From a virus, in IMG/VR virus record IMGVR_UViG_3300035232_000745: DNA of 64,000 nt. One strand, 5' to 3'. Below the pieces are notes generated by a model. That model made no database searches. It saw only the letters and a program-made list of their open reading frames with translations, and was not told the DNA's origin. Position 1 is the stretch's first letter. The number at the start of each line of letters is the position of its first letter. Positions 1,455 to 63,068 of this stretch are shown one piece after another. Position numbers and translations under genes: made by a program.

Positions 1455-2314
1455 AAGTCCTAGTAACAGGCTGTACAGGATATGTTGGAAGTCATTTATG
1501 TAAAAAATTAAAAGAGCATGGGCACGAGGTTCATGGCTTTGATGTTAACTTTCATGGAGAACACAACGACGTAAGTTTTATCGATAAATTCTGGATACAA
1601 GATTTAAATGATAGGTATCTACACGGTTGGGGAGATGCTGTTGTACATCTCGCAGGAAGAAGCGTAGTGCCACAAAGTCTTAAAGAACCTAGTAATTATT
1701 ATCGCGTTAATACTATGGGAACTAAAAACGCTGTTGAAAAACTTCGTACAGACAACTTTATTTTTGCTAGTACAAGTTCAGCGTTTGAGATGAGATCTCC
1801 TTATGCGCGAAGTAAAGTAGGCGCAGAGGATATCATTAAGGAGAAGGCAAATGGGTACACTATTTTTCGTTTTTTTAACGTCTCTGGTACTGATGGGATA
1901 CATCGCCAGCTCGGTACTCCCTCTCATCTTATTCGCGTGGCTGCTATGGCTGCTGCTGGGAATATTCCCGATATTAAAGTCTTTGGCAATGATTATGATA
2001 CTAGGGACGGTACTTGTATACGGGATTATATACATGTGTGTGATATTAGTGATGCTATAGTAAGGGCAATTGAAAAAGGTCCTGCAAATACAGATTACGA
2101 ATGCTTAGGAAGTAATACTGGTTATAGCGTTTTTGATGTTATTAAAACAATGGAAAATGTGTCTAACACCACCATTACAAAAACATTAGCACCTCGTAGA
2201 GAAGGTGACGCGCATTCTTGTATAGTTGAAAACTTATCAGAATTTTGCGATTTAAAATATACTTTAGAAGATATGTGCTACGATCAATATAAACTTGAAA
2301 TTAAACGCATTTAA
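1451..2314 (+). CDS. galE: UDP-glucose 4-epimerase-like NAD-dependent epimerase
   Basis: TGCTGYVG Rossmann motif, YARSK catalytic motif, DGTCIRDYIHV. Confidence 0.88.
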   Translation: MKVLVTGCTGYVGSHLCKKLKEHGHEVHGFDVNFHGEHNDVSFIDKFWIQDLNDRYLHGWGDAVVHLAGRSVVPQSLKEPSNYYRVNTMGTKNAVEKLRTDNFIFASTSSAFEMRSPYARSKVGAEDIIKEKANGYTIFRFFNVSGTDGIHRQLGTPSHLIRVAAMAAAGNIPDIKVFGNDYDTRDGTCIRDYIHVCDISDAIVRAIEKGPANTDYECLGSNTGYSVFDVIKTMENVSNTTITKTLAPRREGDAHSCIVENLSEFCDLKYTLEDMCYDQYKLEIKRI

Positions 2315-2346
2315 CTGTTTACATACCTATAGAATCAGTGTAGGTT
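2311..2346 (+). promoter_or_regulatory. sigma70-like promoter with inverted TGATTCT (GANTC) in spacer
   Basis: TTTACA 2318-23, 17 nt, TAGGTT; AGAATCA at 2331-37. Confidence 0.6.
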
Positions 2347-2537
2347 GTATGTAGGTGAAACAAGACACTGCCTGACAATAACGTCGAAGAGGTCTAAGAA
2401 AGCCTAAGCGTGTTGGATCCGCATTGTTTAGGTGGGTATGAATATCTGGTACCGAAGGAAACCCAGGCGTTGCTACGAGCGAGACAAGTAGATAAGGGGA
2501 GGGACACTCGAGAAAGTCCCTCCCACGAAAATAAAAG

Positions 2538-2653
2538 TCTTTTTAATTATGGCCGGATGACAGGAATTCATAGGTTACGTTATTGCAGTAACAGGCCTAA
2601 CCGCTGCAACGGTTTCCGAGGTTCAATTCCTCGGTCGGTTATAATTAAAAAGA
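2538..2653 (+). ncRNA. non-canonical tRNA-like structured RNA
   Basis: T-arm CCGAGG-TTCAATT-CCTCGG, acceptor-like stem extended by a 13-bp perfect inverted repeat, two internal hairpins, no CCA. Confidence 0.55.
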
Positions 2654-2658
2654 TTTAT

Positions 2659-2732
2659 TAGGGTGTAGTATAATGGCAGTACAACGGATTCCAAACCCGT
2701 TGGCGTGGGTTCGATTCCTACCACCCTTGCCA
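2659..2732 (+). tRNA. tRNA-Trp(CCA)
   Basis: anticodon loop TTCCAAA, GGTTCGATTCC T-arm, G discriminator plus CCA. Confidence 0.9.
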
Positions 2733-2745
2733 AACGGGAATCGTA

Positions 2746-3423
2746 ATGTCTGAATTAACTAAATCATTATATTATGATACACCGATAGAAGAGTGGAAGC
2801 AAATATTAAACGATAATATGGACTACCACTATTGTAATCCGATGTTTAACAGCGACGTTTTTTCTAATGTAAAAACTGTCCTTGACATCGGCTGTGGATG
2901 GGGAGGGTTGGCGCGCGAGTTACGAAATAAATTTAATTTAGATGTAACTTGTTTGAGCAACTCTCCCCAACAGATAGATTATATTGGATCTGACTTTAAA
3001 ACAATTCTTGCAGATGCTGATACTTTTAAAACAGATATACATTACGATCTTATTTTATATGTGGAATCTATCGGACATATAAAAGACATAACTCTTCAAA
3101 ACATTTCAAATAATACTGATAAGATTATGATACACGATTTTGTTTCAAATCGAGAACGAAACTATCCGCATTTCGCAATTAAAATACGAACACGAGATCA
3201 GTATAAAAAGTTATTGAATGATGCTGGTTTTGAAATGACGAGATTTCATGAACATCCATACGAGCAATGGATTAAAGAATCAGAATTTTGGCTAAACAAT
3301 ATTACACCAAATATGAGTTATCAAATGAGAGTTCTTAAACAATTTACTGCTAATATAGTAAACGGTACTTACAGGAAACATAACGTAAATTGTTGCTCTA
3401 TTATAGCAAATAAAATGAAATAA
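2746..3423 (+). CDS. class I SAM-dependent methyltransferase (CFA-synthase-like N-terminus)
   Basis: VLDIGCGWGG motif I. Confidence 0.8.
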   Translation: MSELTKSLYYDTPIEEWKQILNDNMDYHYCNPMFNSDVFSNVKTVLDIGCGWGGLARELRNKFNLDVTCLSNSPQQIDYIGSDFKTILADADTFKTDIHYDLILYVESIGHIKDITLQNISNNTDKIMIHDFVSNRERNYPHFAIKIRTRDQYKKLLNDAGFEMTRFHEHPYEQWIKESEFWLNNITPNMSYQMRVLKQFTANIVNGTYRKHNVNCCSIIANKMK

Positions 3424-3427
3424 AATG

Positions 3428-3491
3428 AAATTAACTGTTTACATGACTATCATGATTCTGTATAAAGGTTATAGAAACAAACACAGAGAGA
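3428..3491 (+). promoter_or_regulatory. early sigma70-like promoter and leader, copy 1
   Basis: TTTACA-17-TATAAA; TGATTCT at 3453-59; 40 nt identical to 16060-16099. Confidence 0.8.
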
Positions 3492-3498
3492 TAAAACG

Positions 3499-3753
3499 AT
3501 GAAACTAGTTAAAGTACAACGCGAAATTCTTACAAACGCAGCAGATTCTTTTGCAAAGCACGGTGTTGAAAAGCCAATTCACGTAATGTCAGTTAACTCA
3601 AAAAATGATATCGATAACTTTCCTAAATCTTATGCTACATATTGCAAAAAGATGGAACTACTAATCGAAGCTGGTTTGATTTCTCGTGAAATTAATAATG
3701 ACGGTTACGCTTATATGACTCAAAAAGGTTATGAGTTTACAGCTACTATCTAA
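3499..3753 (+). CDS. hypothetical early protein (possible winged helix)
   Basis: follows early promoter; LIEAGLISR...YMTQKG resembles a wHTH end. Confidence 0.6.
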   Translation: MKLVKVQREILTNAADSFAKHGVEKPIHVMSVNSKNDIDNFPKSYATYCKKMELLIEAGLISREINNDGYAYMTQKGYEFTATI

Positions 3754-4034
3754 ACCGCGAAACTTTCTCCGCAACCGCACGAAGCTGTTGCATTTGGATT
3801 GACTACTTTGAGGTAACTTCCTCCCAGTTCCTCGACGTAGTCAATCGTACATCCAAAAATAAACATTTCTGCCATAGGATCAAGCCACAGATTTGCCACG
3901 TGTGGTTCTTTTTCTGTTGTTCCCCACTCATATTGAAATCCAGAACAACCACCGCCTTTTACATTAAGCGATACGTTCGGCTTGCCAGCTTTTTTTAAGT
4001 AAGCTTTTGCGTTATCTGTGACTTGAATTTTCAT
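3750..4034 (-). CDS. iscA: A-type Fe-S cluster carrier (IscA/HesB)
   Basis: GGGCSGFQY and CGCGESF motifs. Confidence 0.92.
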   Translation of the reverse strand: MKIQVTDNAKAYLKKAGKPNVSLNVKGGGCSGFQYEWGTTEKEPHVANLWLDPMAEMFIFGCTIDYVEELGGSYLKVVNPNATASCGCGESFAV

Positions 4035-4193
4035 TTACTCAGACTTCCAAATAGTCCAAGCACCCCAAGCGATAGCAACTCCTGCCGCAATCTTAGCTAA
4101 TGGTGCCATGAATAAAACCATGAGGCCAAGAGCAACTAATGCTCCGCCATCCCACGTTGTTCTTTCTTTAAGTCTGTTTTTAATCCAGTTCAT
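4035..4193 (-). CDS. small two-TM membrane protein (52 aa, not in ORF track)
   Basis: MNWIKNRLKERTTWDGGALVALG...; couples to both neighbouring ORFs. Confidence 0.7.
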   Translation of the reverse strand: MNWIKNRLKERTTWDGGALVALGLMVLFMAPLAKIAAGVAIAWGAWTIWKSE

Positions 4194-4501
4194 TTTTCTT
4201 TCCCTCCCAGGATCTTTACGCCGGCTTTTGCTTCGACGGCATTCAATCGACGTTCTAAATCGTCGATCTTTTTGGTTATTTTGGGATATTTTTTACGCCA
4301 AGCATCTTCAGGCTGTTCTAGCCAAGTAAGACCCCAACGTTCAACCAAATAATCAACAGCGTTGTCGATCTTTGCATATCCCCATAAACCAATACGGGTG
4401 GTACTTAGATAAGCTAAACAAATAGCACCTAAAATACTACCACCAATACTAGTATAAATCCAAAGACGATTAGTCGCCATATCAGTAATTATTTCAATCA
4501 T
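4190..4501 (-). CDS. hypothetical membrane protein
   Basis: N-terminal TM helix, coupled in operon. Confidence 0.7.
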   Translation of the reverse strand: MIEIITDMATNRLWIYTSIGGSILGAICLAYLSTTRIGLWGYAKIDNAVDYLVERWGLTWLEQPEDAWRKKYPKITKKIDDLERRLNAVEAKAGVKILGGKEK

Positions 4502-5228
4502 GTTCGTTCTCCCTAGTGTATTTGCAATAGTGAGTCATACTATGATCATAAGCACCGTCGAAAGGCATTCCTTTTTTCAAGGCTCTCCAGCGACCGCGCC
4601 ACTTATCTTTAATACGCTGCCATCTTGTGCACTTTCTAATGTTTCCGTAGTAATTGATATATCTCGGAGAACTGTGGTGTCTGTATCCCAACAGAGCGAA
4701 AGGTACGCAAGTGACCATGTCATTATTATTAACATGCCTATAATGGGCAGTTTTAATTGAGTTAACAAATTTCTTAGTCCCTGTTCTTGGTGATCCGTAA
4801 GTGTAAAGTGCATCAACCTTATCTTGCATTCTACTCGTTGCAATAGTAGCCATTGCTGCACCTAATGAATGTCCACATACGAAAAACGATTTACCGTCTA
4901 ATTTCATTTTATTGAGAGCAACATTAAGTTGTTCCCATATTTTATTTACTTCTTCCTGAAATCCGTTATGCACAAGTCCTGACCCATTATGGGCTCTGTC
5001 TGGCAATGCGTTTAGATCAGCTTTAATATCAGATAATTCTTTAGGTTCTGTTCCCCTAAAACATAATACAACTTCTTCTTTATTTGAAACGATATGCATT
5101 TGTGCACCATCGTGTTCAATAAATTTGTGCGATGTGTAACCAAGCTTCTTATAATGCGGTTTAGCTTCTTTCGCATCCATGTAAGCTATTTGTGCACACT
5201 GTGCCATTATACTACATTTATTTATCAT
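4494..5228 (-). CDS. class 3 lipase (alpha/beta hydrolase)
   Basis: FRGT, GHSLG nucleophile elbow, YGSPR, D..VP, C-terminal DH. Confidence 0.9.
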   Translation of the reverse strand: MINKCSIMAQCAQIAYMDAKEAKPHYKKLGYTSHKFIEHDGAQMHIVSNKEEVVLCFRGTEPKELSDIKADLNALPDRAHNGSGLVHNGFQEEVNKIWEQLNVALNKMKLDGKSFFVCGHSLGAAMATIATSRMQDKVDALYTYGSPRTGTKKFVNSIKTAHYRHVNNNDMVTCVPFALLGYRHHSSPRYINYYGNIRKCTRWQRIKDKWRGRWRALKKGMPFDGAYDHSMTHYCKYTRENEHD

Positions 5229-5421
5229 TTTTCCTATCCTTTAAAATATCTTTCATTACATTAGAAGCAGTATTCGTAAATAATCTTGGAGCTAAGCCAT
5301 GTATTAATAATACAGGAACTAATAATTGTAATCTTGCAGCGGTTTTAAAAGCATAACACATATGCTCTAAACCTGTCTCTCCAGCTTTTTCTAAGTGTAA
5401 TTTGCACTCTTTACTTAACAT
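5218..5421 (-). CDS. small conserved protein (DUF6356-like)
   Basis: HL..GET..EH...LIHGL.P.LF..TAS pattern. Confidence 0.6.
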   Translation of the reverse strand: MLSKECKLHLEKAGETGLEHMCYAFKTAARLQLLVPVLLIHGLAPRLFTNTASNVMKDILKDRKNDK

Positions 5422-5733
5422 TTATTTTCCTTTCATAGAATTCAGTTTTGCTTTTAACGCGTCAGCGCTTCCCGCCTTTTTGGCCTGTAGTTCGGATTTG
5501 GAGTTATCCCGTCGTAACTTACTACTGAGCAATACTTTACCTTCTTGCGAACTATTATCGGAATCGTAGGCAGTCTTAGCACTAACCTGTTTTCTAAGTT
5601 CTGTTGTTCTTTCTGAAAGCTCTCTAATTCTTGTTGCGAAATATCTTTCAACCATATTCTCCTTAAAACGTCGGTCGACTTCATTTTCAATGTATTCTTT
5701 ACATAACCAGTCAAATAAAAATCGTTTTATCAT
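5422..5733 (-). CDS. hypothetical protein
   Basis: start taken at MIKRF (ATGA overlap with cyclase stop). Confidence 0.6.
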   Translation of the reverse strand: MIKRFLFDWLCKEYIENEVDRRFKENMVERYFATRIRELSERTTELRKQVSAKTAYDSDNSSQEGKVLLSSKLRRDNSKSELQAKKAGSADALKAKLNSMKGK

Positions 5734-7775
5734 TTGCTTGTAGCTATAAACACACCATTCCAATCTTTAGGAAGGTTTTGAGTTTTCATAAATTTACAGC
5801 GCTCTTTCCACATATCGTAATATCCATCCATTTTATTATCAAAGTGCCCTTGCAATATTTCACATAGTGCTATTGCATCATCAAATTTCTGAGCTTGATA
5901 AGCTTCATACATTTCTTCGTGTTTTTCTTTAGGTTTTTTCCAAACATCTCTTACATCATCTAGTGCTGTGTAAATACTTAAACCAACACTCTTACCTTTA
6001 ACTTGTAAATCATCAATTTTAAGATAAAAGAAATCGTTCTTAGTAAGTTCGTAAGTTGCTTCTCCTATTAGAAGAACTTGCCCGTATTCTTTACATTTTG
6101 ATTCGACTCTAGCTGCGGTGCTGACGCTGTCCCCCAACACATCATAGCTATGTCTTTTTGTTGATCCCATTTCTCCAATGTAACCAAGTCCGGTATTAAT
6201 ACCCGCGCCCATACCGACGGGAGGTCTTCCTTCAGGAATGATAATATCTTCATTAAATTTCTCCACTGCTTTAAGCATTTTAAATGCTGTCGTTACTGAG
6301 GTAAAGGCATGATTTTCATCATCAATCGGAGCATTATGTATGTGCATTGAAGCATCACCGATATATTTAATTATCATACCATTAGCATCTAATACAGGTT
6401 CTGTAATAGCATCCATATAACCGTTCATTATTCTAGTCAATCCTTTAACGTCATCTCCGAAACTTTCACCTAAAGGAGTAAAGCCTCGCAAATCACTAAA
6501 AACGATTGATACGTCTCTTTTAACGCCTTCTTTAATTAATGATGGATTTTCCTGTAACATCTTAACAACTGTTGGTGATGCATAACCAGCAAATTGTTTT
6601 TTGATTTCTTGTTTCTGTAAAAATTCGTCTACAAATTTTACAATATACCGTAAACTGCCAACGAAGAATAACATAACAGAAATAGTAAGGCCGTCAACAA
6701 GAATATTTGAAGTTTGAAATACATAGATTGATCCTCCTATAAATCCGCCTATTGTTAATACGAATGCTCCGATACCTATAAAAGTCCAATAAGATAAGCC
6801 TATTATTAATAATCCTGCTATAAGTAATGCAGCTAACTCTCCCCAAGCTTTTGCATCGGCGTGACGCGTAATGTTTGACTCATTAAATACAGTACCTAAC
6901 ATTGCTGCTTGCATTTGATGTGGAAATACCGATCCCATAGCTGTAGCAATTGGTTGTGTAATACCAGCTGCTGTTGGGCCAACAAAAACTATCGATCCAT
7001 CTAAATTGTCTGGTAAATCAGTAATGCTATATTCCATATAACCTTGTGACCAATCAACCCAAACTTCTCCTGCTTCGTTTGTTGGTATGATACCAAATTG
7101 TGGTATTCTTAATTTATCAACACCAAGAGGTGAAAGTTTAATTTGGAAACTCGGATCTCCAGATAATACACGAAGTACTTCCATTGTAACGTTTGGATAT
7201 AGAGTACCACCGCTTTCAAAGACTAAAGGTGCACGTCTTGTAACACCGTCTATTTCTGGAAAGGTGTTGATGATTCCTGACCCCATTGCATTATTTTCAA
7301 GGCTTGGTACGTTAGCGATGATCCCAGGTATACTTGGAATAAGAGACATATAATCGCTATTAATAATAGAGGCTCCCGGATTAATTGGTTCATTTTTGTT
7401 CTCCTCAGAGCCTAACATTGTTAAAATTACTGGTACTTGCTGCATAGTAAGAGCAAGGTCTTGATCTTCACCAGATCTATCTTCTTCACTCATTAATACA
7501 TTGAATACCACGAGGCCTGCGCCTCTGTTATATAAATCTATAATAAAATCTGAATATGTAGCACGCGGAAATGGCCATTGACCGTATTTTTCTAAAGCTG
7601 ATCTGTCTATGTTTACGGTATAAATGTTATTTTGAACTGGTTCTTGATTTACAATTAACTGATCAAAATATCTTAATCTTAGACTTTCTATTAAGGCTGG
7701 ATTACTTGCGTGCAACCATGCGAATAAGCATAATAATATTATACTCCATGCTGGAGAGAATAACAGTTTTTTCAT
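5730..7775 (-). CDS. CHASE2-domain class III adenylate/guanylate cyclase
   Basis: CHASE2 (GQWPFPR, DGVTRRAPL), 3 TM helices, FSDLRGFT, KYIGDA, GINTG, YDVLGD. Confidence 0.93.
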   Translation of the reverse strand: MKKLLFSPAWSIILLCLFAWLHASNPALIESLRLRYFDQLIVNQEPVQNNIYTVNIDRSALEKYGQWPFPRATYSDFIIDLYNRGAGLVVFNVLMSEEDRSGEDQDLALTMQQVPVILTMLGSEENKNEPINPGASIINSDYMSLIPSIPGIIANVPSLENNAMGSGIINTFPEIDGVTRRAPLVFESGGTLYPNVTMEVLRVLSGDPSFQIKLSPLGVDKLRIPQFGIIPTNEAGEVWVDWSQGYMEYSITDLPDNLDGSIVFVGPTAAGITQPIATAMGSVFPHQMQAAMLGTVFNESNITRHADAKAWGELAALLIAGLLIIGLSYWTFIGIGAFVLTIGGFIGGSIYVFQTSNILVDGLTISVMLFFVGSLRYIVKFVDEFLQKQEIKKQFAGYASPTVVKMLQENPSLIKEGVKRDVSIVFSDLRGFTPLGESFGDDVKGLTRIMNGYMDAITEPVLDANGMIIKYIGDASMHIHNAPIDDENHAFTSVTTAFKMLKAVEKFNEDIIIPEGRPPVGMGAGINTGLGYIGEMGSTKRHSYDVLGDSVSTAARVESKCKEYGQVLLIGEATYELTKNDFFYLKIDDLQVKGKSVGLSIYTALDDVRDVWKKPKEKHEEMYEAYQAQKFDDAIALCEILQGHFDNKMDGYYDMWKERCKFMKTQNLPKDWNGVFIATSK

Positions 7776-7900
7776 TTTTTAGCCTCATCCTCTTTACAAT
7801 CACATCTATAACAGACGTCATTAACACACTCTTGGCAGGACGAAGCATAACAATGGCATCCGTGACCACATTTTTGGCATGTTCTTTTCGGTCCTTGCAC
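7772..7900 (-). CDS. Cys-rich metallothionein-like peptide (42 aa, not in ORF track)
   Basis: GGAG SD, GTG start, 9 Cys and 2 His, ATGA overlap with cyclase. Confidence 0.7.
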   Translation of the reverse strand: MQGPKRTCQKCGHGCHCYASSCQECVNDVCYRCDCKEDEAKK

Positions 7901-7913
7901 TTTTATAACTCCG

Positions 7914-7945
7914 TATAAATAATACATATTCTTAAACTATTTATA
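7914..7945. promoter_or_regulatory. pair of oppositely oriented T4-type late promoters
   Basis: TATAAATA on + at 7914-21 and on - at 7938-45. Confidence 0.7.
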
Positions 7946-8087
7946 ATGAAACGCTTTGGATTAGGATTAGATCATAGAACATATCGAAGATATCTATTCT
8001 GGATGTGAGCCAGTAGGTAGAGCAGAACCTTCACGATCACACATCGTAAGATTTTGCTTCGGTACTTCACATGCGCATTGTACATTA

Positions 8088-12089: not shown

Positions 12090-12091
12090 TT

Positions 12092-16027: not shown

Positions 16028-16099
16028 TTAATTACAAATTAACTGTTTACATCAGTGTAATGATTCTGTATAAAGGTTATAGAAACAAACACAGAGAGA
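16028..16099 (+). promoter_or_regulatory. early sigma70-like promoter and leader, copy 2, with CtrA-like box
   Basis: TTAA-N7-TTAAC 16028-43, TTTACA-17-TATAAA, TGATTCT 16061-67. Confidence 0.8.
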
Positions 16100-16105
16100 A
16101 ACAAA

Positions 16106-16486
16106 ATGAAATATCAAATTTTTCAAATCCGCACTACAGACGCAGAAATCGCAGCTTTTAACAAAACTGAAGATTATGCTTCAGCTCCTAAACTAAAAGC
16201 ACGTCGCGATATGCAGTTTCCTACTCTTGTTAACTCAACAGTACAAGATCTTGCAGCAGACGCTTTCTTCGGCGGTTTATACACTCACGTTGCAAATATC
16301 ACTGCATCAGATCTTGAGCATGTATTTGAAATTTCAAACATTGGTCCAGAAACTGCTATCGAGCGCCTTGATCGTAAACATTCACTTTCAGTGGGTGACA
16401 TTGTAATCGACGAAAACAATATCGTTTGGGTAGTAGCTGACTTCGGTTTCGAAGAAGTTACTGAATTACAAGTTGTAGCAGCTTAA
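16106..16486 (+). CDS. YodL-like early protein
   Basis: LE.VF..N...HSLSVGDIV motif; ends VVAA. Confidence 0.6.
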   Translation: MKYQIFQIRTTDAEIAAFNKTEDYASAPKLKARRDMQFPTLVNSTVQDLAADAFFGGLYTHVANITASDLEHVFEISNIGPETAIERLDRKHSLSVGDIVIDENNIVWVVADFGFEEVTELQVVAA

Positions 16487-16490: not shown

Positions 16491-16528
16491 CTGTTTACAA
16501 CTCCCCAATAATCCGTTATACTGATTCT
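16491..16528 (+). promoter_or_regulatory. early sigma70-like promoter
   Basis: TTTACA 16494-99, 17 nt, TATACT, TGATTCT 16522-28. Confidence 0.75.
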
Positions 16529-24139: not shown

Positions 24140-24172
24140 TTGACATTTCGTGATTAACAATGTACTATAACA
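24140..24172 (+). promoter_or_regulatory. sigma70-like promoter
   Basis: TTGACA-17-TACTAT. Confidence 0.65.
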
Positions 24173-28075: not shown

Positions 28076-28117
28076 TATTTATAATACGGTTGACATTTTT
28101 CTAAGTCACGGTATAAT
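28076..28117. promoter_or_regulatory. late promoter (-) back-to-back with sigma70 promoter (+)
   Basis: TATAAATA on - at 28076-83; TTGACA-16-TATAAT on + at 28090-28117. Confidence 0.7.
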
Positions 28118-29174: not shown

Positions 29175-29248
29175 TATTTTTATCACATATTACTTTTAAT
29201 GGGCCTCTTGTATTTACATTTGGCCCATTTTACATTATATATACTTAG

Positions 29249-29500
29249 TGAACGTTGAAGTGACGTGAATACGGATCGGACCGCGGGGCAGTACCGCGCA
29301 TCTCCACCACAAGCGCATTATGTGTGTTTTTGATGGGGATGAACTAGGATCGACGGACGGGATAGCTAAGTGGAGTTCATCGGGTGATCGCGTATAGATC
29401 AATTAAACTAAATGCAAATGAAAATTTCGCACCATCTGGTTATGCTCTAGCAGCATAAACACAGGGGGTTGGCAACTTACCTAGCAACAGAAAAGTTCGC
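29249..29500 (+). ncRNA. ssrA: circularly permuted two-piece tmRNA
   Basis: 3' CATCTCCACCA (ends 29309) lies before 5' GGGGATG (29335) with a G3-U70 pair; tag ANENFAPSGYALAA* at 29414-58; outer ends approximate. Confidence 0.92.
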
Positions 29501-29535
29501 ATACATACAAACTATTAGAAAAGGAAAGAAGTAGT

Positions 29536-30336
29536 ATGAATAAATTTTTAACAACAACAGCTTTAGTATTTTTAGGAACGTCAGCATTCGCAGAGGAAGC
29601 TGCTCCAGAAGCACCAGCGGCAGTCACACTCGGTGGCTCAATCGAAACAGTAATCGCAGAAGGTGCAAACGATAAGTACGGCGCTACTACTTCGTTCGAA
29701 CTTAATGGTAATCTTGCTAACGGCTTAGCAACAGGCTCAATGGATTTCGTAGTAGGTTCTTCAGATGAACTTAAATTAGACGAATGGTCAATGGGCACAA
29801 CAGTAGCAGGCATGGGTTTATCTTTCGGAGATCAAGGTAATGCATGGATCTCAACTGAAGCAGGTTCAACAATCGAAGAGCCAACTATGAATGAAAGCTT
29901 ACAAATTTCAGGTTTAGGCGCAACAGTAGCTCTTGGATTTACAAGTGTATCTACAGACGTAACAGATATTTCTAATGTTCAAGCAACATACGGTATGGAT
30001 CTTTCAATCCTCGAAATATCAACAGCTGGTGACTATAACATTGATTCACAAGACTGGGTAATTGCAGGTCGTGCAGATACAGCAGGAATGATTGACGGAG
30101 TTCGTTTAGGCGGTGCAATGTCTTACGGTTCAGCATCTGAAAATATTGGTTTTGAAGCTGACGCAACAGTAATGGGCGTAACTGCTTACTTATCTGGTGA
30201 TCAAGACGATATGGCTCAGCATGTAGGTGGTTCATATACATACAATCTAAAAGGTTTAGATCTTGAAGGTGCAGTAGATTATGACATCGATGCAGAAGCA
30301 TACACACCAAAAGCGACTTTAAGCTTTAACTTCTAA
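29536..30336 (+). CDS. outer-membrane porin
   Basis: signal peptide AFA, amphipathic strands, C-terminal LSFNF. Confidence 0.8.
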   Translation: MNKFLTTTALVFLGTSAFAEEAAPEAPAAVTLGGSIETVIAEGANDKYGATTSFELNGNLANGLATGSMDFVVGSSDELKLDEWSMGTTVAGMGLSFGDQGNAWISTEAGSTIEEPTMNESLQISGLGATVALGFTSVSTDVTDISNVQATYGMDLSILEISTAGDYNIDSQDWVIAGRADTAGMIDGVRLGGAMSYGSASENIGFEADATVMGVTAYLSGDQDDMAQHVGGSYTYNLKGLDLEGAVDYDIDAEAYTPKATLSFNF

Positions 30337-31002: not shown

Positions 31003-31064
31003 ACGTTTACATATACGTAAAAATATGGTATTATAAATTAATAATCTATACAAGGAGGAATACA

Positions 31065-32622: not shown

Positions 32623-32781
32623 ATGGAAAAAGGGTTTACAATTAATGCATGTTGTAGTAGAGTAAACATAATATCTGAATCACAAACATTGACATTCGGC
32701 GAACACTTGTTCCTCGTGACTGTAGTTCATTGTTCTAATTGTGGTTCAATTAAAGCAACTACTAATATTAAGGAACACAAA

Positions 32782-36208: not shown

Positions 36209-36301
36209 GGTTGACATTTTCAACTTAATGTTTTACTATAAATTTGTGGCGGGTAATTATGTTGCTCGCCACAATTCAACTTAGAATTCTGGGAATATAT
36301 A

Positions 36302-52036: not shown

Positions 52037-52040
52037 GTTG

Positions 52041-52069
52041 TGTACATCTGACAGATTCCGGCGTATAAT
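52041..52069 (+). promoter_or_regulatory. sigma70-like promoter of primase
   Basis: TGTACA-17-TATAAT with GATTC in spacer. Confidence 0.6.
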
Positions 52070-52101
52070 GTTATTATCACGCAACATGGAATCAATTTAT
52101 A

Positions 52102-53112: not shown

Positions 53113-53122
53113 AGGATTAAAA

Positions 53123-53794
53123 ATGAAAGCTAGACTAATCGCATATTCACAACCATCCAAAGATGAAATCATTGGTTTGGACGACGTACAAGATTTAATC
53201 GCGTACTGCGCAAGAGTATCAAACCCATCGAACCAATTAAACCAAGAAACAGCTCCTAAGCTATTGTCATATCTTGCTAAACATGCTCATTGGTCACCGT
53301 TTGAAATGGCTAATGCTACTATGGAAATTGAAACAACCCGTGATATCGCTCGCCAAATGTTACGTCATCGTTCATTTGCATTCCAAGAGTTTAGCCAACG
53401 CTATGCTGATATCCGTGACCTAGATAGTAAAATGGTTGTTCGTAAAGCTAGATTACAAGATCCAAAAAATCGGCAAAACAGCGTTATGACTGACGATGTA
53501 TCTCTGCATATGGCTTGGGAAGTTCATCAACGAAATGTTTGGAACGAAGCAATGAAATCATATGCGTGGGCTATTGAAAATGGTATCGCAAAAGAACAGG
53601 CTCGTGCTATTTTACCTGAAGGTAATACACCAAGTCGTTTATATATGCAAGGTTCTATTCGTTCGTGGATCCATTATATTGAACTACGTTCGTCTAATGG
53701 AACACAACAAGAACATATGGAAATTGCTATTGCTTGTGCCGAAGCCATCACAAAAATATTCCCAAGCATCGGCGCTTTTATTCAAAAAGATTGA
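53123..53794 (+). CDS. thyX: flavin-dependent thymidylate synthase
   Basis: HWSPFE, RHRSFAFQEFSQRY, AKEQAR. Confidence 0.97.
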   Translation: MKARLIAYSQPSKDEIIGLDDVQDLIAYCARVSNPSNQLNQETAPKLLSYLAKHAHWSPFEMANATMEIETTRDIARQMLRHRSFAFQEFSQRYADIRDLDSKMVVRKARLQDPKNRQNSVMTDDVSLHMAWEVHQRNVWNEAMKSYAWAIENGIAKEQARAILPEGNTPSRLYMQGSIRSWIHYIELRSSNGTQQEHMEIAIACAEAITKIFPSIGAFIQKD

Positions 53795-53937
53795 CATATT
53801 ACCACATATGTGGTACCGTAGTTGATAAATACACCTACCAATTGATAGACTCATTGGTAGAATTCCAAATAAAAGTAGTAAACGTTGCATAGTTTTGTGA
53901 TGCGTACTACTTTACACTTTTAAACAAAGAGGCGCCT

Positions 53938-55233: not shown

Positions 55234-55244
55234 GGAAGTATATT

Positions 55245-56942
55245 ATGAGAAAATACAAAAAATTCTATTGGCTAAATGATGACTCCAAGACATTTTTGTC
55301 GCGCGGTTATCTAGAAGAAAAAGAAAAGCCGCAAGACCGTATCCGTTTCATTGCTGATAAAGCTGAATGGTACCTTAAGGATATGGCAAAAACAAAAGCA
55401 GGTAAAGCTTCTTATGACGGCTTTTCTGATAAATTTTATGACTACATGAGTCGTGGTTTTTATTCCCTAGCATCCCCTATTTGGGCAAACTATGGTAAAG
55501 AACGTGGGTTGCCAGTATCATGTTTTGGATCGTACATCGATGATAGCATGTCAGCAATCTTATTCGGCCATGCAGAAAATGGCATGTTGATGAAAAATGG
55601 TGGTGGTACATCAGGTTATTTTGGCGCAATCAGACACCGTGGAGCTCCTATCCGAGACTCAGGTGAATCTTCAGGTTCTGTGCACTTCATGCAGATGTAC
55701 GATACTTTGGCTTCAGTCGTATCACAAGGTTCAGTACGTCGTGGTTTCTTTGCTGCATATCAAGACATTGAACACCCAGACGCTGACGAGTTTCTAGACA
55801 TTGGCACAGAAGGTAATCCTATTCAAGGGTTAACAACTGGCATCAATGTTAGTAACAAATTCATTGATGAAATGAAAGCTGGAGATCCAGACAAACGTCG
55901 TCTATGGGCAAAGGTACTACAACGTCGTTCTGAAATTGGTTTCCCTTATATTCTATTTTCAGATAACGTAAACGATGGTCGACCGCAAGTATATAAAGAT
56001 AAGGATATGAGAGTACACGCTTCAAATATGTGTGCTGAAATTGCATTACCATCTTCACACGAGGAAACGTTTACATGCGTATTGTCTTCTCTTAATGTTT
56101 TACATTGGGATGAAATCAAAGAAACAGATGCGATTGAAACATTGACTATGTTCCTTGATACGGTATGCGAAGAGTTTGTTCGTAAAACAGCTGGTCAAAT
56201 CTATATGAAACGTGCTCGTGATTTTGCTATGAAACACCGTGCCCTTGGTGCTGGTATTTTAGGATGGCATTCTCATCTACAATCTAAAATGATTTCCTTT
56301 GAGTCAAAAGAAGCATCTCAGTTAAACCTTGAGATTGCTAAAACAATGCAAGAACGTTCGTATGAAGCGTCTCGTCAAATGGCTAAAACATTAGGTGAAC
56401 CAGAATTACTTGAAGGTTATGGAATGCGTAATACCACAACAATGGCTATTGCTCCTACTAAATCATCAAGCTTTATCCTTGGTCAAGTATCACAATCTAT
56501 TGAGCCAGAATTCTCTAACGCTTATGTTAAAGATCTAGCGAAAATGAAAGTTACTATTCGCAATCCATATTTAAAAGAATTGTTAATTAGTAAAGAACAA
56601 GATACGCCAGATGTATGGGAATCAATTAAAAACCGTGACGGATCTGTTCAGCATCTTGAGTTCTTAACTGAAGACGAACGTGCAGTATTTAAAACTTTCT
56701 CAGAGATTAGTCCAAATACTATTATTGACCAAGCTGCAATTCGTCAACAGTACGTTGATCAAAGTCAAAGCTTAAACTTAATGTTAGATCCAGATATGAC
56801 TGTCAAAGATATTAATGCCCTATATTTGTACGCAAACGAGATGGGTGTTAAGAGTTTATATTATGCTTATTCTATGTCAGCAGCACAATCTCTTACGAGG
56901 AAACGTGTTATGTCAGCAGATTGCGCAGCGTGTGAAGCATAA
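55245..56942 (+). CDS. nrdA: class I ribonucleotide reductase alpha subunit (no ATP-cone)
   Basis: [26 protein letters not shown]-terminal CAAC. Confidence 0.95.
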
Positions 56943-56949
56943 AAATAAT

Positions 56950-58143
56950 ATGGAATATATGAAATACTTTGAAAACACGATTGACGAATACAAATCAGAC
57001 GGAAGATATAGAGTCTTTAACGATATATTGAGAGAGCGGGGGAATTTCCCTCGCTCAATATGGTATGGAAAATATGCTCCAAAGAATATAGTTAACTGGT
57101 GCTCAAATGATTATTTGGGCATGGGTCAAAATCAGTATGTTATTGATGCTATGCACACAGCTCTGGATCAAACCGGTGCTGGTTCTGGAGGAACAAGAAA
57201 TATTGGTGGAACATCTCACTATCACGTAACACTTGAAAGAGAATTAGCATCTTTACATAAAACAGAGTCTTCATTACTTTTCTCTAGTGCTTATGTAGCA
57301 AATGAGTGGACTTTAATAGCCTTATCTAGAATCATACCAAATATCTGTTTTATATCAGATAACAAAAATCATGCTTCTTTAATCATGGGAATAAAACATT
57401 CTCGTAGTGAAAAAAGAGTATTTAAACATAACGATATGAACGATTTAGAAGCAACGTTAAAGAAAGTCGTTAAACAAAAATTAAATCCTGTAATCGTATT
57501 CGAGTCCGTGTATAGTATGGACGGTGATATATCTCCTATCAAAGATATTGTTGCGTTGGCGCATAAATATAACGCGTTAACTTATATTGATGAAGTTCAC
57601 GCAGTAGGTTTATATGGTGAGACTGGTGGCGGATATTGTGAACAATTAAACATGTACTCTGACGATATAGATATAATTAACGGAACGCTTGGTAAAGCTT
57701 TCGGTGTACAAGGAGGTTATATTGCAGCTAATAAAACGATTGTTGATGCTATTAGATCAGTCGCAAGCGGATTTATATTCACAACATCCATCTCACCTGT
57801 TTTGTGTGCTGGGGCTATCGCCTCTATAAATTACGTAAAAGATCACAAATCACTTAGAGAAAAACATCAATCAAAAACTAAGCAGCTTAAGAAAATGCTT
57901 AGAAGAAGGAATATACCAGTGCATGAAAATGCATGTACTCATATTGTTCCTATAATGGTAAACGACGCGTTTAAATGCAAAGAAGCAAGCGATCGGTTAC
58001 TTAACGAATACGGCATATATATTCAAGCAATCAACTCACCAACTGTAGAAGCTGGAACAGAAAGATTGCGCATTGCTCCGACTCCATTCCACACAGATAA
58101 CATGATGATGGAGTTGGTATCAGCTCTAAGGGATGTATTATAA
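56950..58143 (+). CDS. hemA: 5-aminolevulinate synthase
   Basis: [41 protein letters not shown] lysine. Confidence 0.95.
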
Positions 58144-58616
58144 TGAATCAATTACAAGCCGCTTTCTTTAGCGGTCAAACACAGAAAGATAATAGTATGA
58201 CTAAGATTAAAAAAGCCTTTTGGTTTGTATTAGGCATCCTCTTGGTAGGCGTAGCTTATTTAGGAGTATTACTACCTGGACTACCGTGGAGTACACCTAT
58301 TTTAGGGGCGACGTTTTGTTTTGCCAAGTCCTCCGACCGTTTACACAACTGGATTATGAACCACCCAAGGTTTGGTCCATTTGTTAAAAACTGGTCTAAA
58401 CTAAGAGTTTACCCTCAAAAAGCAAAATATTTAATGGTTGCAGTAATGTCAACATCATTAGGATTTATGTATTTTGGTACGGGAAATATAAAAGCAACAT
58501 TGTATATGTTTATTATGTTTGCACTAATCGTTATTTGGGCATGGCGTTACCCAGGTAGTAAAGCGGAAGCAGAACGTCGTATTGAAGCCGGTGAAAAAAT
58601 CGGTTGGTTAAAGTAA
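58143..58616 (+). CDS. YbaN/DUF454 inner-membrane protein
   Basis: GV.LPGLP..P...A.FCF.KSS.RLH.W...HP.FGP. Confidence 0.85.
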   Translation: MNQLQAAFFSGQTQKDNSMTKIKKAFWFVLGILLVGVAYLGVLLPGLPWSTPILGATFCFAKSSDRLHNWIMNHPRFGPFVKNWSKLRVYPQKAKYLMVAVMSTSLGFMYFGTGNIKATLYMFIMFALIVIWAWRYPGSKAEAERRIEAGEKIGWLK

Positions 58617-58630
58617 AGGATATGGTTAAC

Positions 58631-59575
58631 ATGAAACAAATATTAAGTGCGGTTTTAGCCACAACTATAGCATCAGGTGCTATGGCAGGTGGACATGAAC
58701 AACCCGAAGAAAAAAACGGACCGTTTGTTAACGGCACTTTTGAAATCTATATTGACGACACAAATACTGAAGGAACAGTTGATACTCGTTTTGAGGCCAT
58801 GGGTGGTTACGAAACAGACATCGATCATCCTTTAGCAAATTGGGCAGGTTTTGGAGCAAGGTTCGATACAAACTATGCTTTGAACAGATCTCTTGATAAC
58901 ACAATTACTGAAAAGCAAATGGGACTCGGTATCGGTAATAACGCAAGATTATACGTAGGTGAAACAGATGCTCAGCGTTTAGGTTTTGCAAAAACATCTA
59001 AAATCGGTGCACCTGTTATTATTACAAAACCAAGTTCTCGTATTGATCATAACGAAAAAGTAGTTCTTACTTTTGGTGGTTGGGAAAACAACGACGAGTT
59101 TGAATTTAATACATATCGTTTAAAGCGTGATATGCCATATGGCGGCGTAGTTGGTTGGAATCCTGAAGACGATTCACTATATTACGGTGCAACTGCTCGA
59201 GTAAGTATTCTCGACGTTTCGTATATGGGCATTAAGAAAGATGATGAAACACAACATGGTTATTCGGTTGGCACATCATTCCATCGCATGGGAGTTCCAG
59301 TAGGTCTTGGCATTGAAAGATGGGAAGACGCTGAGAATACACGCATGGACTTTGGTGTAATGTATAATTATAGTAAAGAAATAATGTTTACTGCGCATAG
59401 AGTTGCAGACGACGACTTAGGATTTACATATAACTATCTTGCAGCAATTCATACTAAAGGACCAGTTGAGTTAGGATTATATCTACATCAAGGAAAAGAC
59501 CAAGTAAATCCTTGGACCGGTCAAAAATCAGAAATCGATGATAGCATTAAGGCTACAATCAAATATAAATTCTGA
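58631..59575 (+). CDS. outer-membrane porin-like beta-barrel
   Basis: signal peptide AMA, C-terminal IKYKF. Confidence 0.7.
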   Translation: MKQILSAVLATTIASGAMAGGHEQPEEKNGPFVNGTFEIYIDDTNTEGTVDTRFEAMGGYETDIDHPLANWAGFGARFDTNYALNRSLDNTITEKQMGLGIGNNARLYVGETDAQRLGFAKTSKIGAPVIITKPSSRIDHNEKVVLTFGGWENNDEFEFNTYRLKRDMPYGGVVGWNPEDDSLYYGATARVSILDVSYMGIKKDDETQHGYSVGTSFHRMGVPVGLGIERWEDAENTRMDFGVMYNYSKEIMFTAHRVADDDLGFTYNYLAAIHTKGPVELGLYLHQGKDQVNPWTGQKSEIDDSIKATIKYKF

Positions 59576-59655
59576 TTATAAATAAACTTAATATGGCAAT
59601 CACCTCTGATATCACGTGATTGCTTTTACAAAATGTTATTGATGAGGAGTATATA

Positions 59656-60678
59656 ATGAAGAGAATATTAATTACTGGTGGCGGTGGCTTTATTGCCCAT
59701 CATTTAATTAACCAAGTGCTTATGCGAACAGATTGGGAAATTGTAACACTAGATCGCTTAGATTATAGTGGCAATCTTAATCGTTTACACGACTTGCTTC
59801 AAGAACGTACTCCAACCGAGAGGAAAAGAGTCCGCACAATCTTCCACGATTTAAAAGCAGAAATTAACCCGATGCTAGAAGCAGACATCGGTCCTGTTGA
59901 TATCATTGCACATCTTGCAGCAGGCTCTCACGTAGATCGTTCTATTGATAGACCTATGGAATTTGTGATGGATAACGTTGTTGGTACTGCAAACCTTTTA
60001 GATTATGGTCGAAGACAAGATAATCTAGAACGTTTCTTGTACTTTTCAACTGATGAAGTATTTGGTCCTGCACCAGAAGGTGTTAAATACGATGAATACG
60101 ATCGTTATAATTGTACTAATCCTTATTCTGCATCTAAAGCTGGAGCAGAAGAACTCGCAGTAGCTTATCAAAATACATATAAAATGCCAATATACATTAC
60201 CCATACAATGAACGTATTTGGCCAAAGACAACATCCAGAAAAGTTTATTCCTATGACTATTCGTAATGTACGAGATGGCGGTACGGTAACTATTCACAGT
60301 GATGAAACAAAAACAATTCCAGGTTCACGTCATTATATTCATGCTGAAGATGTTGCAGATGCTACATTGTTCCTATTAGAAAACGAACGCACTCTTGATA
60401 TGACAAACAATACAGGCATTAAGTGTCCTAAGTTTAATATTTGTGGATCGACAGAATTAAACAATTTAGAATTAGCTCAATTAATTGCAGAGTCTCAAGG
60501 GAAGGAATTAAATTATGAATTTATGGATTTCCATTCTAGCCGTCCTGGGCATGATCTTCGTTATGCTCTTAGCGGTGATCGTATGGCGAACATGGGTTGG
60601 ACTCCACAACCAGTTAGAGAAAGAATTGATGAAGTGGTTCAATGGACTTTAAACAATAGAAGGTGGTTAGACATATGA
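59656..60678 (+). CDS. rfbB: dTDP-glucose 4,6-dehydratase
   Basis: TGGGGFIA, HLAAGSHVDRS, STDEVFG, PYSASKA, RPGHD.RY; late promoter at 59577-84. Confidence 0.9.
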   Translation: MKRILITGGGGFIAHHLINQVLMRTDWEIVTLDRLDYSGNLNRLHDLLQERTPTERKRVRTIFHDLKAEINPMLEADIGPVDIIAHLAAGSHVDRSIDRPMEFVMDNVVGTANLLDYGRRQDNLERFLYFSTDEVFGPAPEGVKYDEYDRYNCTNPYSASKAGAEELAVAYQNTYKMPIYITHTMNVFGQRQHPEKFIPMTIRNVRDGGTVTIHSDETKTIPGSRHYIHAEDVADATLFLLENERTLDMTNNTGIKCPKFNICGSTELNNLELAQLIAESQGKELNYEFMDFHSSRPGHDLRYALSGDRMANMGWTPQPVRERIDEVVQWTLNNRRWLDI

Positions 60679-61253
60679 GTTTTGTACAATTTATAGAAGG
60701 TGAATATAATAGAGTAAAGAACACTTTCTCTGATATTAACGAACACATCGAATTGCTATATACTTTAGGAATGGAATGTGATAGAATATGTGAAATGGGT
60801 GTCAGAGATGGTGCTAGTACTAGAGCATTTCTTAATACTAACGCATCTTTGAGATCATACGATATCGAATTAAACGAAGAAGTTCAAAACCTATTCACAA
60901 GAGCAAAGTCTGTTGGAAAAGATGTAACTTATGAAAAAGAGAACGTTTTGAATATTGAAATTGAGCAGTGTGATTTGTTGTTCATTGATACGTGGCATTC
61001 TGGTTCTCAATTAAAACGTGAGCTAGAAATACATGGTAACAAGGCTAACAAATATTTAGTATTCCATGACACTCATACATATGGATGCAGAGATGAAAAA
61101 CAAAACTGGAGAGACTTTGCGGATAAACGACCAATAGCAGGCGAAGGGTTACTTAAATCAATAATCGATTTTGTTATCGAAAATCCTGAATGGAAGTTTA
61201 AAGAATTAAGAACAAATAATAACGGCCTAACCGTTCTAGAAAGGACAAAGTAA
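60675..61253 (+). CDS. class I SAM methyltransferase
   Basis: EMGVR.G.ST, DLLFIDTWH, FHDT, NNGLT. Confidence 0.8.
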   Translation: MSFVQFIEGEYNRVKNTFSDINEHIELLYTLGMECDRICEMGVRDGASTRAFLNTNASLRSYDIELNEEVQNLFTRAKSVGKDVTYEKENVLNIEIEQCDLLFIDTWHSGSQLKRELEIHGNKANKYLVFHDTHTYGCRDEKQNWRDFADKRPIAGEGLLKSIIDFVIENPEWKFKELRTNNNGLTVLERTK

Positions 61254-62794
61254 TGATTGTAGATTGCTTTCCATTTTTTGCACCAACAGGAGAAGAACTC
61301 TTAAAACTAAGAGTTAATCTTTTAAAAGATGTAGTCGATAAATTTATTATTGTTGAGTCTGATAAAACTCACAGCGGTAAACCAGTACAAAGAAAGTTTC
61401 TTGAGATTGCCCAGAAGCATGGTCTTCCAATGGAAAAAATCATCTACGTCGAACATCACATTCCAGAACGTGAAGATATCGTAGTTGAAAAGATTGATAA
61501 GATTAATGCAGGTGTAAATAAAGATAATGAAGATTCAGTATATGCTCGTGCAAGAGAAAGAATGCAAAAAGATGCGGTAATGGAAGGCATGTCTGGTTTT
61601 AGAGATAACGATGTATTCTTATACGGTGATGCTGATGAAATCATTAGACCAGAAAATGTTAAATGGGTTGCAAGAATGGCTCTTGCACATCAAGAAATTA
61701 TTCTCAAAATACCGTTAGCTTATCTGCAGGGTCGTGCCGATTTAAGAGCATATAATACTGACGATAGTCCAGTTGTATGGTGGAAAGCCATGTTCTTTGC
61801 GAGTAAAAAACAAATTATGGAGTTTTCAATAAACAAAATCCGTTGTGGTTCTATGCACCTCCCAATTCGTTGGCCAACACACAATAATCGTGTGATACAA
61901 GATATGGGCTGGCACTTTGCTTGGATGGGCGATTCTGATATGAGAAAAGTAAAAGCAGATTCTTTTGCACACGCGTTTGATAATTTTGATTGGATGGAAG
62001 ATGTAAAAGGATATCAAGACTATGCTAATTGGGATATGCATCTAACTGAAGAAGGACCAGCACCAGATGGAAACATCAATCATAAACTTAAAAGGTACGG
62101 AATAGAAAACTTACCTAGTATTATTTTCGAAGATGAAAGCCTGCGTGACTTCTTGTTGCCTCCTACTGATATAAAAGAAGAGTTTAAGTTTAATAAGTGT
62201 GATTGTTTTTGGTGTCAAAAGCTTAAGTTCCCTTTGATGTATAATCTCGACGGCGAAAGAAATTGGTTTGAAGTTCCGAGAAGTTGTAGTGTAACAATTA
62301 AAGAATCATTTCCTGAAAGACGTCAAGTATTTAGAGATACAGACGAATATGATGAAGCACGAGGTAGACCAATCGTAGTTTACTCAGATCCTATTAATAG
62401 ATTTGTTTCATGTATTAACGGTTATCTTGTAGAAAAACAACGTTATTATCATTATGGTGAAGATATTTTTGCGTCGTTTGGTAAAAAACTTAGTGAATGT
62501 ACTAAGCAAGAAAAGATAGATTTATTCTTTAAACATCTGCATAAAATCGGATCATCTCATCAGCTTCATCATTTTCACCCTCAAGCTTGGTTCGTTGATA
62601 CTAATAAGTTTAAAAAGTTTACTTTAGTTAAAAAAGAAGATGTTTCTTCAACCTTTAATGTTAAACATAAACTGAACCAAACTACGAAAGAAATCTTTGA
62701 GCAAGATTTTAGTGAAGAACAAATTGATTTTCTTAAACGCCTTTATGCTGTAGACTACGCCTTTTGGGATAAGTACAAACCAGATGAAAGTTAG
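61253..62794 (+). CDS. GT17-like glycosyltransferase fused to a sulfotransferase-like domain
   Basis: DCF.F, VD.F.IVES..THSG, DADEI, GWHF; C-terminal VPRSCS.T, DP.NRFVS, HF.PQ. Confidence 0.75.
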   Translation: MIVDCFPFFAPTGEELLKLRVNLLKDVVDKFIIVESDKTHSGKPVQRKFLEIAQKHGLPMEKIIYVEHHIPEREDIVVEKIDKINAGVNKDNEDSVYARARERMQKDAVMEGMSGFRDNDVFLYGDADEIIRPENVKWVARMALAHQEIILKIPLAYLQGRADLRAYNTDDSPVVWWKAMFFASKKQIMEFSINKIRCGSMHLPIRWPTHNNRVIQDMGWHFAWMGDSDMRKVKADSFAHAFDNFDWMEDVKGYQDYANWDMHLTEEGPAPDGNINHKLKRYGIENLPSIIFEDESLRDFLLPPTDIKEEFKFNKCDCFWCQKLKFPLMYNLDGERNWFEVPRSCSVTIKESFPERRQVFRDTDEYDEARGRPIVVYSDPINRFVSCINGYLVEKQRYYHYGEDIFASFGKKLSECTKQEKIDLFFKHLHKIGSSHQLHHFHPQAWFVDTNKFKKFTLVKKEDVSSTFNVKHKLNQTTKEIFEQDFSEEQIDFLKRLYAVDYAFWDKYKPDES

Positions 62795-63029
62795 GGCAGG
62801 TAGTGCCAATATAGATGTTCTAAGACTTGAAATTAAAGATTTAAATAGAGAGATTAGCGATCTATATAAAGAGCATGATATAGTAAGAAACCAAAATATG
62901 ATGCTTCTCGAAGTATTAACAGATCTGACCGGTGACGAAAGTTATTGGTCAGATGAAGCAAAGAAGACTGGTATTGTCTTTAAACTTACGAATGTACTAA
63001 CACAAATAAAAAATAATTTTGGTCACTAA
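62784..63029 (+). CDS. hypothetical protein
   Basis: coupled ORF. Confidence 0.5.
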   Translation: MKVRAGSANIDVLRLEIKDLNREISDLYKEHDIVRNQNMMLLEVLTDLTGDESYWSDEAKKTGIVFKLTNVLTQIKNNFGH

Positions 63030-63030
63030 A

Positions 63031-63068
63031 TAGTTTACAACCTATAGAAAACAGTATAGACTGATTCT
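63031..63068 (+). promoter_or_regulatory. sigma70-like promoter
   Basis: TTTACA 63034-39, 17 nt, TAGACT, TGATTCT 63062-68. Confidence 0.7.

Follow-up and report, generated by a model that had tools for sequence, protein, structure and literature searches.

GcrA and CcrM form the textbook epigenetic cell-cycle module of the alphaproteobacteria, and in Caulobacter CcrM is cell-cycle limited. The early promoters of bacteriophage T4 are sigma70-dependent, with GTTTAC at -35 and TATAAT at -10. The methylated site preferred by GcrA is TGATTCG or, more broadly, YGAKTCK (Haakonsen 2015, PMC4647560), and in GcrA-regulated Caulobacter promoters such sites are either 'narrowly centered around -20' or scattered between +2 and +30, and are nearly absent around the -10 (PMC4647560); the published ranges are centres at -20 ± 1 (or -30 ± 2), or +2 to +30 downstream. 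The GcrA DNA-binding domain has been crystallised on TGATTCG, with all seven bases contacted (Wu 2018, PMC5887438; Wu 2023, PMC9976885). In the cryo-electron microscopy complex on the promoter PcsM, GAATC lies at -22 to -18 and a linker of ~60 residues connects the GcrA domain to sigma70 domain 2, and the PmipZ box is written TGAGTCG (PMC9976885). Here we analyse a 64-kb stretch of viral DNA (IMG/VR record IMGVR_UViG_3300035232_000745; hereafter the window), in which comparative sequence analysis identifies the heptamer TGATTCT (the box) as an apparent cis-acting element of TTTACA-type early promoters, with TGATTCG used in the same role by diverged relatives.

Five promoters of the form GTTTACA-N17-(-10), all on the + strand, carry the box in the window, and the coordinates that an earlier sequence-only reading had given for it (2331 inverted, 3453, 16061, 16522 and 63062) were all right. 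Taking +1 as 7 nt after the -10 element, so that all box positions are relative to predicted start sites, the promoter GTTTACA-N17-TAGGTT at 2317..2346 (TTTACA from 2318) contains the inverted box AGAATCA at 2331-2337, with GAATC centred at about -19. The promoter GTTTACA-N17-TATAAA at 3437..3466 (TTTACA from 3438) and another at 16045..16074 (TTTACA from 16046) have TGATTCT in the spacer, at 3453-3459 and 16061-16067, centred at about -17, and are followed by open reading frames (ORFs) of 84 and 126 aa, respectively; as previously suggested, these two are copies of one cassette. An identical stretch, GGTTATAGAAACAAACACAGAGAGA, lies 3' of both -10 elements (3460-3500 and 16068-16108) with different small ORFs behind it, and is predicted to be a duplicated promoter plus 5' leader. 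In GTTTACA-N17-TATACT at 16493..16528 (TTTACA from 16494), which precedes a 137-aa ORF (phrog_21968), the box at 16522-16528 abuts the -10, placing GATTC at -6 to -2. In GTTTACA-N17-TAGACT at 63033..63070 (TTTACA from 63034), upstream of a cell-wall hydrolase gene (PF07486), the box begins at 63062 within CTGATTCTA (63061-63069) after the -10, and a decayed copy of the spacer box, TAGAAAACAG, is still present in the spacer. TGATTCT fits the GcrA word YGAKTCK (PMC4647560), as the sequence-only reading had also noted.

The comparison promoters named in that reading are indeed box-less. No GANTC lies between -35 and +1 in TTGACA-N17-TACTAT (24140..24168, + strand), in TTTACA-N17-TATTAT (31006..31034, +), in the TTGACA promoters before the gp41-type helicase gene (36211..36239, +) and the ribonucleotide reductase genes (53791..53819, +), or in the TTGACA promoter at 28090 and the GTTTACA site at 32635. 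The primase (phrog_47) promoter, TGTACA-N17-TATAAT at 52041..52069 (+), had been listed as having GATTC in its spacer, which it does (52054-52058, centre -20); the context AGATTCC does not fit YGAKTCK.

Enrichment at promoters had been proposed as a check, and it is found there, though not in the window at large, where TGATTCT/AGAATCA occurs 17 times against ~14 expected from base composition, i.e. without over-representation; the 12 copies outside promoters resemble ordinary coding sequence. To widen the sample we used contigs of the co-assembled genome G001 that are 93-97% identical to the window: C166 continues upstream of the window start, C173 aligns to window positions 2679 to ~39000, and C102 aligns from ~38500 onward and reaches 19 kb past the window end. 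Several more-diverged T4-like contigs are also present in G001. Promoters were collected blind to the motif as TT[GT]AC[AG]-N17-TAnnn[TA], lying mostly outside ORFs and with a same-strand ORF start 5-150 nt downstream, from the window and the non-overlapping parts of C102, C166 and C235 (L009, L011 and L019, the last being C235), 114.7 kb in total. This set comprises 24 intergenic sigma70-type promoters, 15 of which have GANTC between -36 and +2, and in 15/15 the word is TGATTCT or AGAATCA. The background expectation per promoter is 0.086 for GANTC and 0.016 for TGATTC[TG], giving binomial P values of 7e-11 and 2e-21; one further promoter has TGATTCT at +7.

These figures bear on whether the pattern arose by chance or through recent duplication of promoter cassettes. 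One cassette does occur twice, at 3438 and 16046, and k-mer enrichment within the window does not single the word out: the intergenic test on the window alone flags TATAAATA and GTTTACA and not TGATTCT, because five copies are too few. Against this stand the binomial P of <=1e-10 in a motif-blind set, the retention of the box in relatives with diverged flanks and a position-specific peak across IMG/VR (both described below). The spacers of the eight promoters with the box after the -10 have a mean pairwise identity of 0.33, compared with 0.27 for random sequence, and are thus unrelated, so that recent duplication does not account for the pattern. For practical purposes chance and duplication are excluded, and this explanation is effectively refuted. 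Genome-wide, GAATC/GATTC is depleted relative to a maximal-order Markov expectation (observed/expected 0.64) while GACTC/GAGTC is not (1.3), a pattern that might come from the removal of stray boxes or from evasion of a GAWTC-specific restriction system.

The boxes fall into a small number of fixed placements. Three promoters have the box centred at -19 with AGAATCA on the top strand; in the duplicated cassette it is centred at -17 with TGATTCT on top; in eight promoters it is centred at -4 with TGATTCT on top, so that the -10 ends on the first T of the box; and centres at -3, -2 and -8 occur in one promoter each, with AGAATCA on top. The eight promoters of the -4 class share only ..agc.GTTTACA, the -10 (TAtaCT) and CTGATTCTAtAA / GATTCTAtAA, and their 9-mer CTGATTCTA recurs in the -19 class as its reverse complement, TAGAATCAG. 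Presence of the box tracks the type of -35 element (TTTACA 13/16 vs TTGACA 2/8; Fisher P 0.02). We considered whether box promoters have weaker -10 hexamers and rejected this, the mean match to TATAAT being the same with and without the box. The idea that the box is a mere -10-like TAGAAT was also rejected, since relatives have ACGAAT there and the shared core is GAATCA. Behind the box promoters lie small ORFs with no assigned family, the cell-wall hydrolase gene and a tRNA/methyltransferase unit. These promoters have the frame of a T4-type early promoter, with a sigma70-like GTTTAC -35 and a -10 at 17-nt spacing before predicted early gene clusters.

Orthologous promoters indicate that the box has moved and been kept. 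The genes at 63097 and 16546 have orthologs on IMG/VR contigs (62-68% and 79-82% identity, respectively), with TTGACA/TTGACG-N17 promoters in the same location. All that the spacers of these promoters have in common is (a)aCGAATCA at spacer positions 8-14, where GAATC falls at -21 to -17; CGAATCA occupies these positions in the 63097-gene orthologs L127-L129 and L131-L133 and also lies in the spacer of the orthologs of the 16494 promoter in L207/L208. It is the reverse complement of TGATTCG, the GcrA optimum and crystallised site. Unlike these spacer boxes, the boxes of the window promoters of the 16546 and 63097 genes are at -4, so that each of two orthologous promoters has kept one box at a changed position. 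This speaks for selection acting on the box and for an equivalent function of the two places. Within the closer group, L013 carries a 95% identical ortholog of the 3438 promoter with five differences in the first 10 bases of the spacer and AATGATTCTGTATAAA unchanged, and the 2317..2346 promoter is conserved in C166. More distant marine T4-like contigs have no GANTC at the box offsets (134 pattern sites, 829 kb), and scans based on GTTTACA over 964 kb of IMG/VR relatives gave almost nothing because the relatives use TTGACA.

The abutment of box and -10 at an invariant position in eight promoters, spanning -7 to +1, raises the question of whether the box is a core-promoter element, such as a discriminator or start-site element, read by the RNA polymerase holoenzyme itself with neither cofactor nor methylation. 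Sigma region 1.2 and the core recognition element do contact the non-template strand downstream of the -10. The same word, however, stands inverted in the double-stranded spacer at -19 and swaps places in orthologous promoters, so that a strand-specific discriminator contact cannot account for the box, and T4, whose early promoters share the GTTTAC -35 type, has no such promoter with the word after its -10. We therefore regard an element intrinsic to polymerase as quite improbable.

A scan of a sample of IMG/VR shows that the spacer placement extends well beyond this group. Among the matches listed for TTGACA-N{0,12}-CGAATCA, a gap of 7 occurs 36 times against a mean of 8.2 in the other 12 bins (Poisson 7e-13), and in nearly all of these listed matches a -10 follows three bases further on. 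The opposite orientation, with TGATTCG on the top strand, is flat in the same scan, with no peak among the matches listed. Likewise among the matches listed, GATTC directly after the -10 of TTGACA-N17-TANNNT occurs 20 times vs 10.1 (~2-fold, P 0.004), and 7/20 of these continue as GATTCTA. The gap-7 contigs represent varied phage types: 9/19 share any protein with the window and 10/19 share none. The element is real: its position and orientation are restricted, it persists through positional turnover, it is depleted in the rest of the genome and its sequence is that of the published GcrA word. In a single promoter of L527 (IMGVR_UViG_3300034018_000472) two boxes occur together, CGAATC in the spacer and GATTC/CGAATC directly after the -10.

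What reads the element is a separate matter, and a monomeric DNA-binding protein other than GcrA, either a virion-injected or very early phage protein or another host factor, would make the GANTC core coincidental; the TTTACA promoters could then be a delayed-early or middle class switched by that protein. The phage of the window conserves 9 bp (CTGATTCTA, in both orientations), which is more than the 7-bp contact of GcrA, the rigid placement at -4 has no counterpart among known GcrA positions, and most of the small early ORFs have no known family, so a regulator could be among them. Nevertheless, the core common to the phage and its relatives is exactly TGATTC[TG], two of the eight YGAKTCK words among 16,384 possible 7-mers; its position and orientation are those seen in Caulobacter PcsM; and the flanks outside the 7-mer vary between clades. 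The presence of the same architecture in unrelated viral contigs fits a host factor better than a phage protein. On balance we consider a reader other than GcrA unlikely.

Evidence on the host comes from the sequence of the phage and from its co-assembly. The window has a GC content of 35.8%, four tRNA genes and T4-type proteins of replication and nucleotide metabolism (gp41-type helicase, UvsX, gp32-type single-stranded DNA-binding protein, gp61-type primase and class I ribonucleotide reductase). The isolates most closely related to it, at ~50% amino-acid identity, are T4-like phages that infect Sinorhizobium, Caulobacter and cyanobacteria, and the T4 late-promoter word TATAAATA is abundant in its intergenic DNA; a near-identity search against isolate phages returned tRNA matches only. 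It is probably derived from an uncultured marine T4-like phage of a low-GC roseobacter. The phage also bears a permuted transfer-messenger RNA (tmRNA) of alphaproteobacterial type (29204..29549, + strand) with the tag ANENFAPSGYALAA and a TTTACA-N17-TATATA promoter at 29213, and this type of tmRNA points to an alphaproteobacterial host. G001 contains one strong alpha-type tmRNA, with the host tag ANDNKAPMALAA, and several phage-type tmRNAs; at least four other T4-like contigs in it have their own tmRNA versions, with tags ANDNYKPSGFALAA and ANENFAPSGLALAA.

Both components of the methylation module are encoded, in one copy each, on bacterial contigs of G001 that have 36-39% GC, similar to the phage. 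The gcrA gene (183 aa) adjoins the aspartate kinase gene, and the ccrM gene (368 aa, with DPPY) lies between mutY and rnhB; this CcrM shares 97% identity with its counterpart in an uncultured Amylibacter metagenome-assembled genome and 75-80% with those of many Rhodobacteraceae. When aligned to the Caulobacter structure over residues 1-45, the DNA-binding domain of this GcrA shows an unchanged helix-turn-helix and an identical recognition helix, SASQIAK-LGGVTRNAVIGKVHRLGL being the same as in Caulobacter except for one residue preceding it. From co-assembly, base composition and tmRNA type, the host is probably an Amylibacter-like low-GC member of the Rhodobacteraceae with CcrM and GcrA. A phage-encoded gcrA or GANTC methyltransferase, for which the sequence-only reading had advised a search, was found neither in the window nor in the phage contigs of G001: the latter contain no phage-borne GcrA (PF07750) or CcrM-type methyltransferase (PF01555), and the 64-kb window contains no DPPY-type ORF. 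Any methylation of the box would thus need the host enzyme. Downstream of the box promoter at 2317..2346 are an 83-aa ORF, tRNA-Trp and, directly after the tRNA, a class I S-adenosylmethionine-dependent methyltransferase ORF (2746-3423; PF13489/PF13649), which is without a DPPY-type DNA methyltransferase motif.

Taken together, these observations favour, at a probability of about 0.55, the reading that the box is of GcrA type and serves to recruit, or to assist, the GcrA-sigma70 holoenzyme of the host. Host RNA polymerase-sigma70 already carrying GcrA would be drawn to the box promoters, or aided in opening them. The GcrA DNA-binding domain would read the GANTC-containing 7-mer, best after methylation by CcrM, at one of two places: in the -35/-10 spacer, with its centre at -19 and the YGAKTCK strand on the bottom, or immediately 3' of the -10, with its centre at -4 and that strand on top. 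Promoters of this class would serve small early genes without assigned function, the cell-wall hydrolase gene and the tRNA/methyltransferase unit, with the gp41-type helicase and ribonucleotide reductase genes on box-less TTGACA promoters and the GATTC of the primase promoter being a non-YGAKTCK word. The identity of the host, GcrA as the reader, a role for methylation and the sign of the effect are what we infer. The sequence-only reading had proposed that one promoter class is wired to the host CcrM/GcrA system; the word, the -19 position, the TGATTCG of the relatives and the presence of CcrM and GcrA in the probable host sustain that proposal, whereas the commonest centre, -4, is off the known range.

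Several points weigh against GcrA as the reader. The commonest placement, with GATTC at -6 to -2, is nearly devoid of GcrA sites in Caulobacter, where downstream sites lie at +2 to +30. Relative to the predicted start sites, the published ranges leave out ten boxes, centred at -4 to -2, and an eleventh at -8. The -4 placement is rigid, with invariant flanks (C before, A after) that a flexibly tethered reader would not obviously need, and the cassette box is centred at -17 in an orientation opposite to that of the other spacer boxes. The quality of the -10 is equal in box and box-less promoters, which differ only in -35 type. The host assignment derives from co-assembly, GC content and tmRNA type, and a CcrM that is cell-cycle limited might leave the DNA of virions or of replicating phage unmethylated. 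Phage DNA may also contain modified pyrimidines in the major groove, which is read by both GcrA and CcrM. Six divergent thymidylate-synthase-family ORFs (~240-260 aa) lie on the phage-like G001 contigs C93, C179, C108, C69, C105 and C76 (L455 and others), one of them bearing SMRSNDVVYGYKND; they are candidate pyrimidine hydroxymethylases, and with such candidate enzymes in phages of G001 the DNA of this phage group may be hypermodified. CcrM or GcrA could be blocked if a pyrimidine of the box were modified.

Named phages also set bounds on the generality of the architecture, to the same effect. The alphaproteobacterial T4-like phage Cr30 has no box promoters, phiM12 has only a few isolated ones, and the roseobacter/SAR116 podophages CRP-2, ICBM2 and HMO-2011 have none. 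In phiM12 (NC_027204.1, 143001-143035) one promoter has CGAATC both in the spacer and directly after the -10. MEP401 has no box promoters, and HTVC008M has one weak match to the box-promoter pattern. Neither T4 nor cyanophage S-PM2 has a TTKACA-N17-TANNNT promoter with GANTC in mid-spacer or <=3 nt after the -10, and this counts in favour of the GcrA reading. When a 66-nt box promoter was compared with isolate phages by BLAST, generic AT-rich Firmicute-phage promoters were all that was recovered. Because the controls with named phages give no or isolated matches, the box architecture is lineage-restricted and not general among alphaproteobacterial phages. A strict pattern applied to 101 Rhodobacteraceae genomes gave 7 matches vs 0 in a reversed control, a number too small to establish that hosts have a promoter class of this kind. 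Three similar promoters, TTGACTC-N5-ACGAATC-N4-TAGGCT, were seen on contigs C58 and C69 of the Rhodobacteraceae genome G017; they may belong to a prophage or repeated element with the same spacer-box architecture in a roseobacter genome.

A literature search found no report of phage promoters built on the GcrA recognition word. If the GcrA reading is true, the phage may tie its first genes to the host GcrA/CcrM system, and it would be the first lytic phage to employ a methylation reader of its host as cofactor of its early promoters. How well infection succeeds in the abundant roseobacters of the ocean would be tied to host cell-cycle phase, and the phage would possess a simple timer for leaving early transcription. 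Should the -4 placement prove GcrA-dependent, the known geometry of GcrA action would be extended. A broader version is more speculative, and we advance it tentatively: widespread marine phages of Rhodobacteraceae and other alphaproteobacteria, T4-like and others, might depend on GcrA-sigma70 and CcrM-methylated boxes for early transcription. Infection would then be efficient only at the right cell-cycle or methylation state, and early promoters would shut themselves off as unmethylated replicated DNA accumulates, forming an epigenetic early-to-late timer.

The closest known counterparts of the box promoters are Caulobacter PcsM and PmipZ, with which they share a GANTC core, YGAKTCK flanks, usually one box per promoter and a sigma70-type -35/-10 frame. 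In the extended word all boxes of the phage are TGATTCT and those of its relatives TGATTCG. As in PcsM, phage spacer boxes are centred at about -20 with GAATC on the top strand, and the -19 class together with the relatives' CGAATCA boxes matches PcsM in word, in position (within 1 bp) and in orientation. Set against published positions, -19 fits (three promoters in the phage, the ortholog promoters and the IMG/VR peak) and the -17 of the cassette is borderline. The -4 class matches Caulobacter in word only, in the top-strand orientation in which the PmipZ box is written; this orientation would fit a reader tethered between both positions, but -4 is outside the published range. A box on either side of the -10 is found in Caulobacter promoters too, and the probable host of the phage has CcrM and a GcrA with an identical helix-turn-helix. 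The systems differ in that the phage boxes lie in predicted early promoters and those of Caulobacter in cell-cycle genes, that the dominant phage position, -4, abuts the -10 and is unpopulated in Caulobacter, and that the phage box is rigid in position with extended flanks (CTGATTCTA).

With T4 early promoters the box promoters share the GTTTACA -35 variant, the 17-nt spacing and a place before clusters of small co-oriented genes, in a T4-like genome with TATAAATA late promoters. T4 differs in having no TTKACA-N17-TANNNT promoter with GANTC in the spacer or just after the -10, and its host, E. coli, has to our knowledge neither GcrA nor CcrM. Another link between alphaproteobacterial phages and the GcrA module is provided by the phiCbK-like Caulobacter phages, which a 2012 study by Gill reportedly found to encode a GcrA homologue; there the link is a phage-borne protein, whereas here it would consist of cis-acting boxes in the promoters of the phage.

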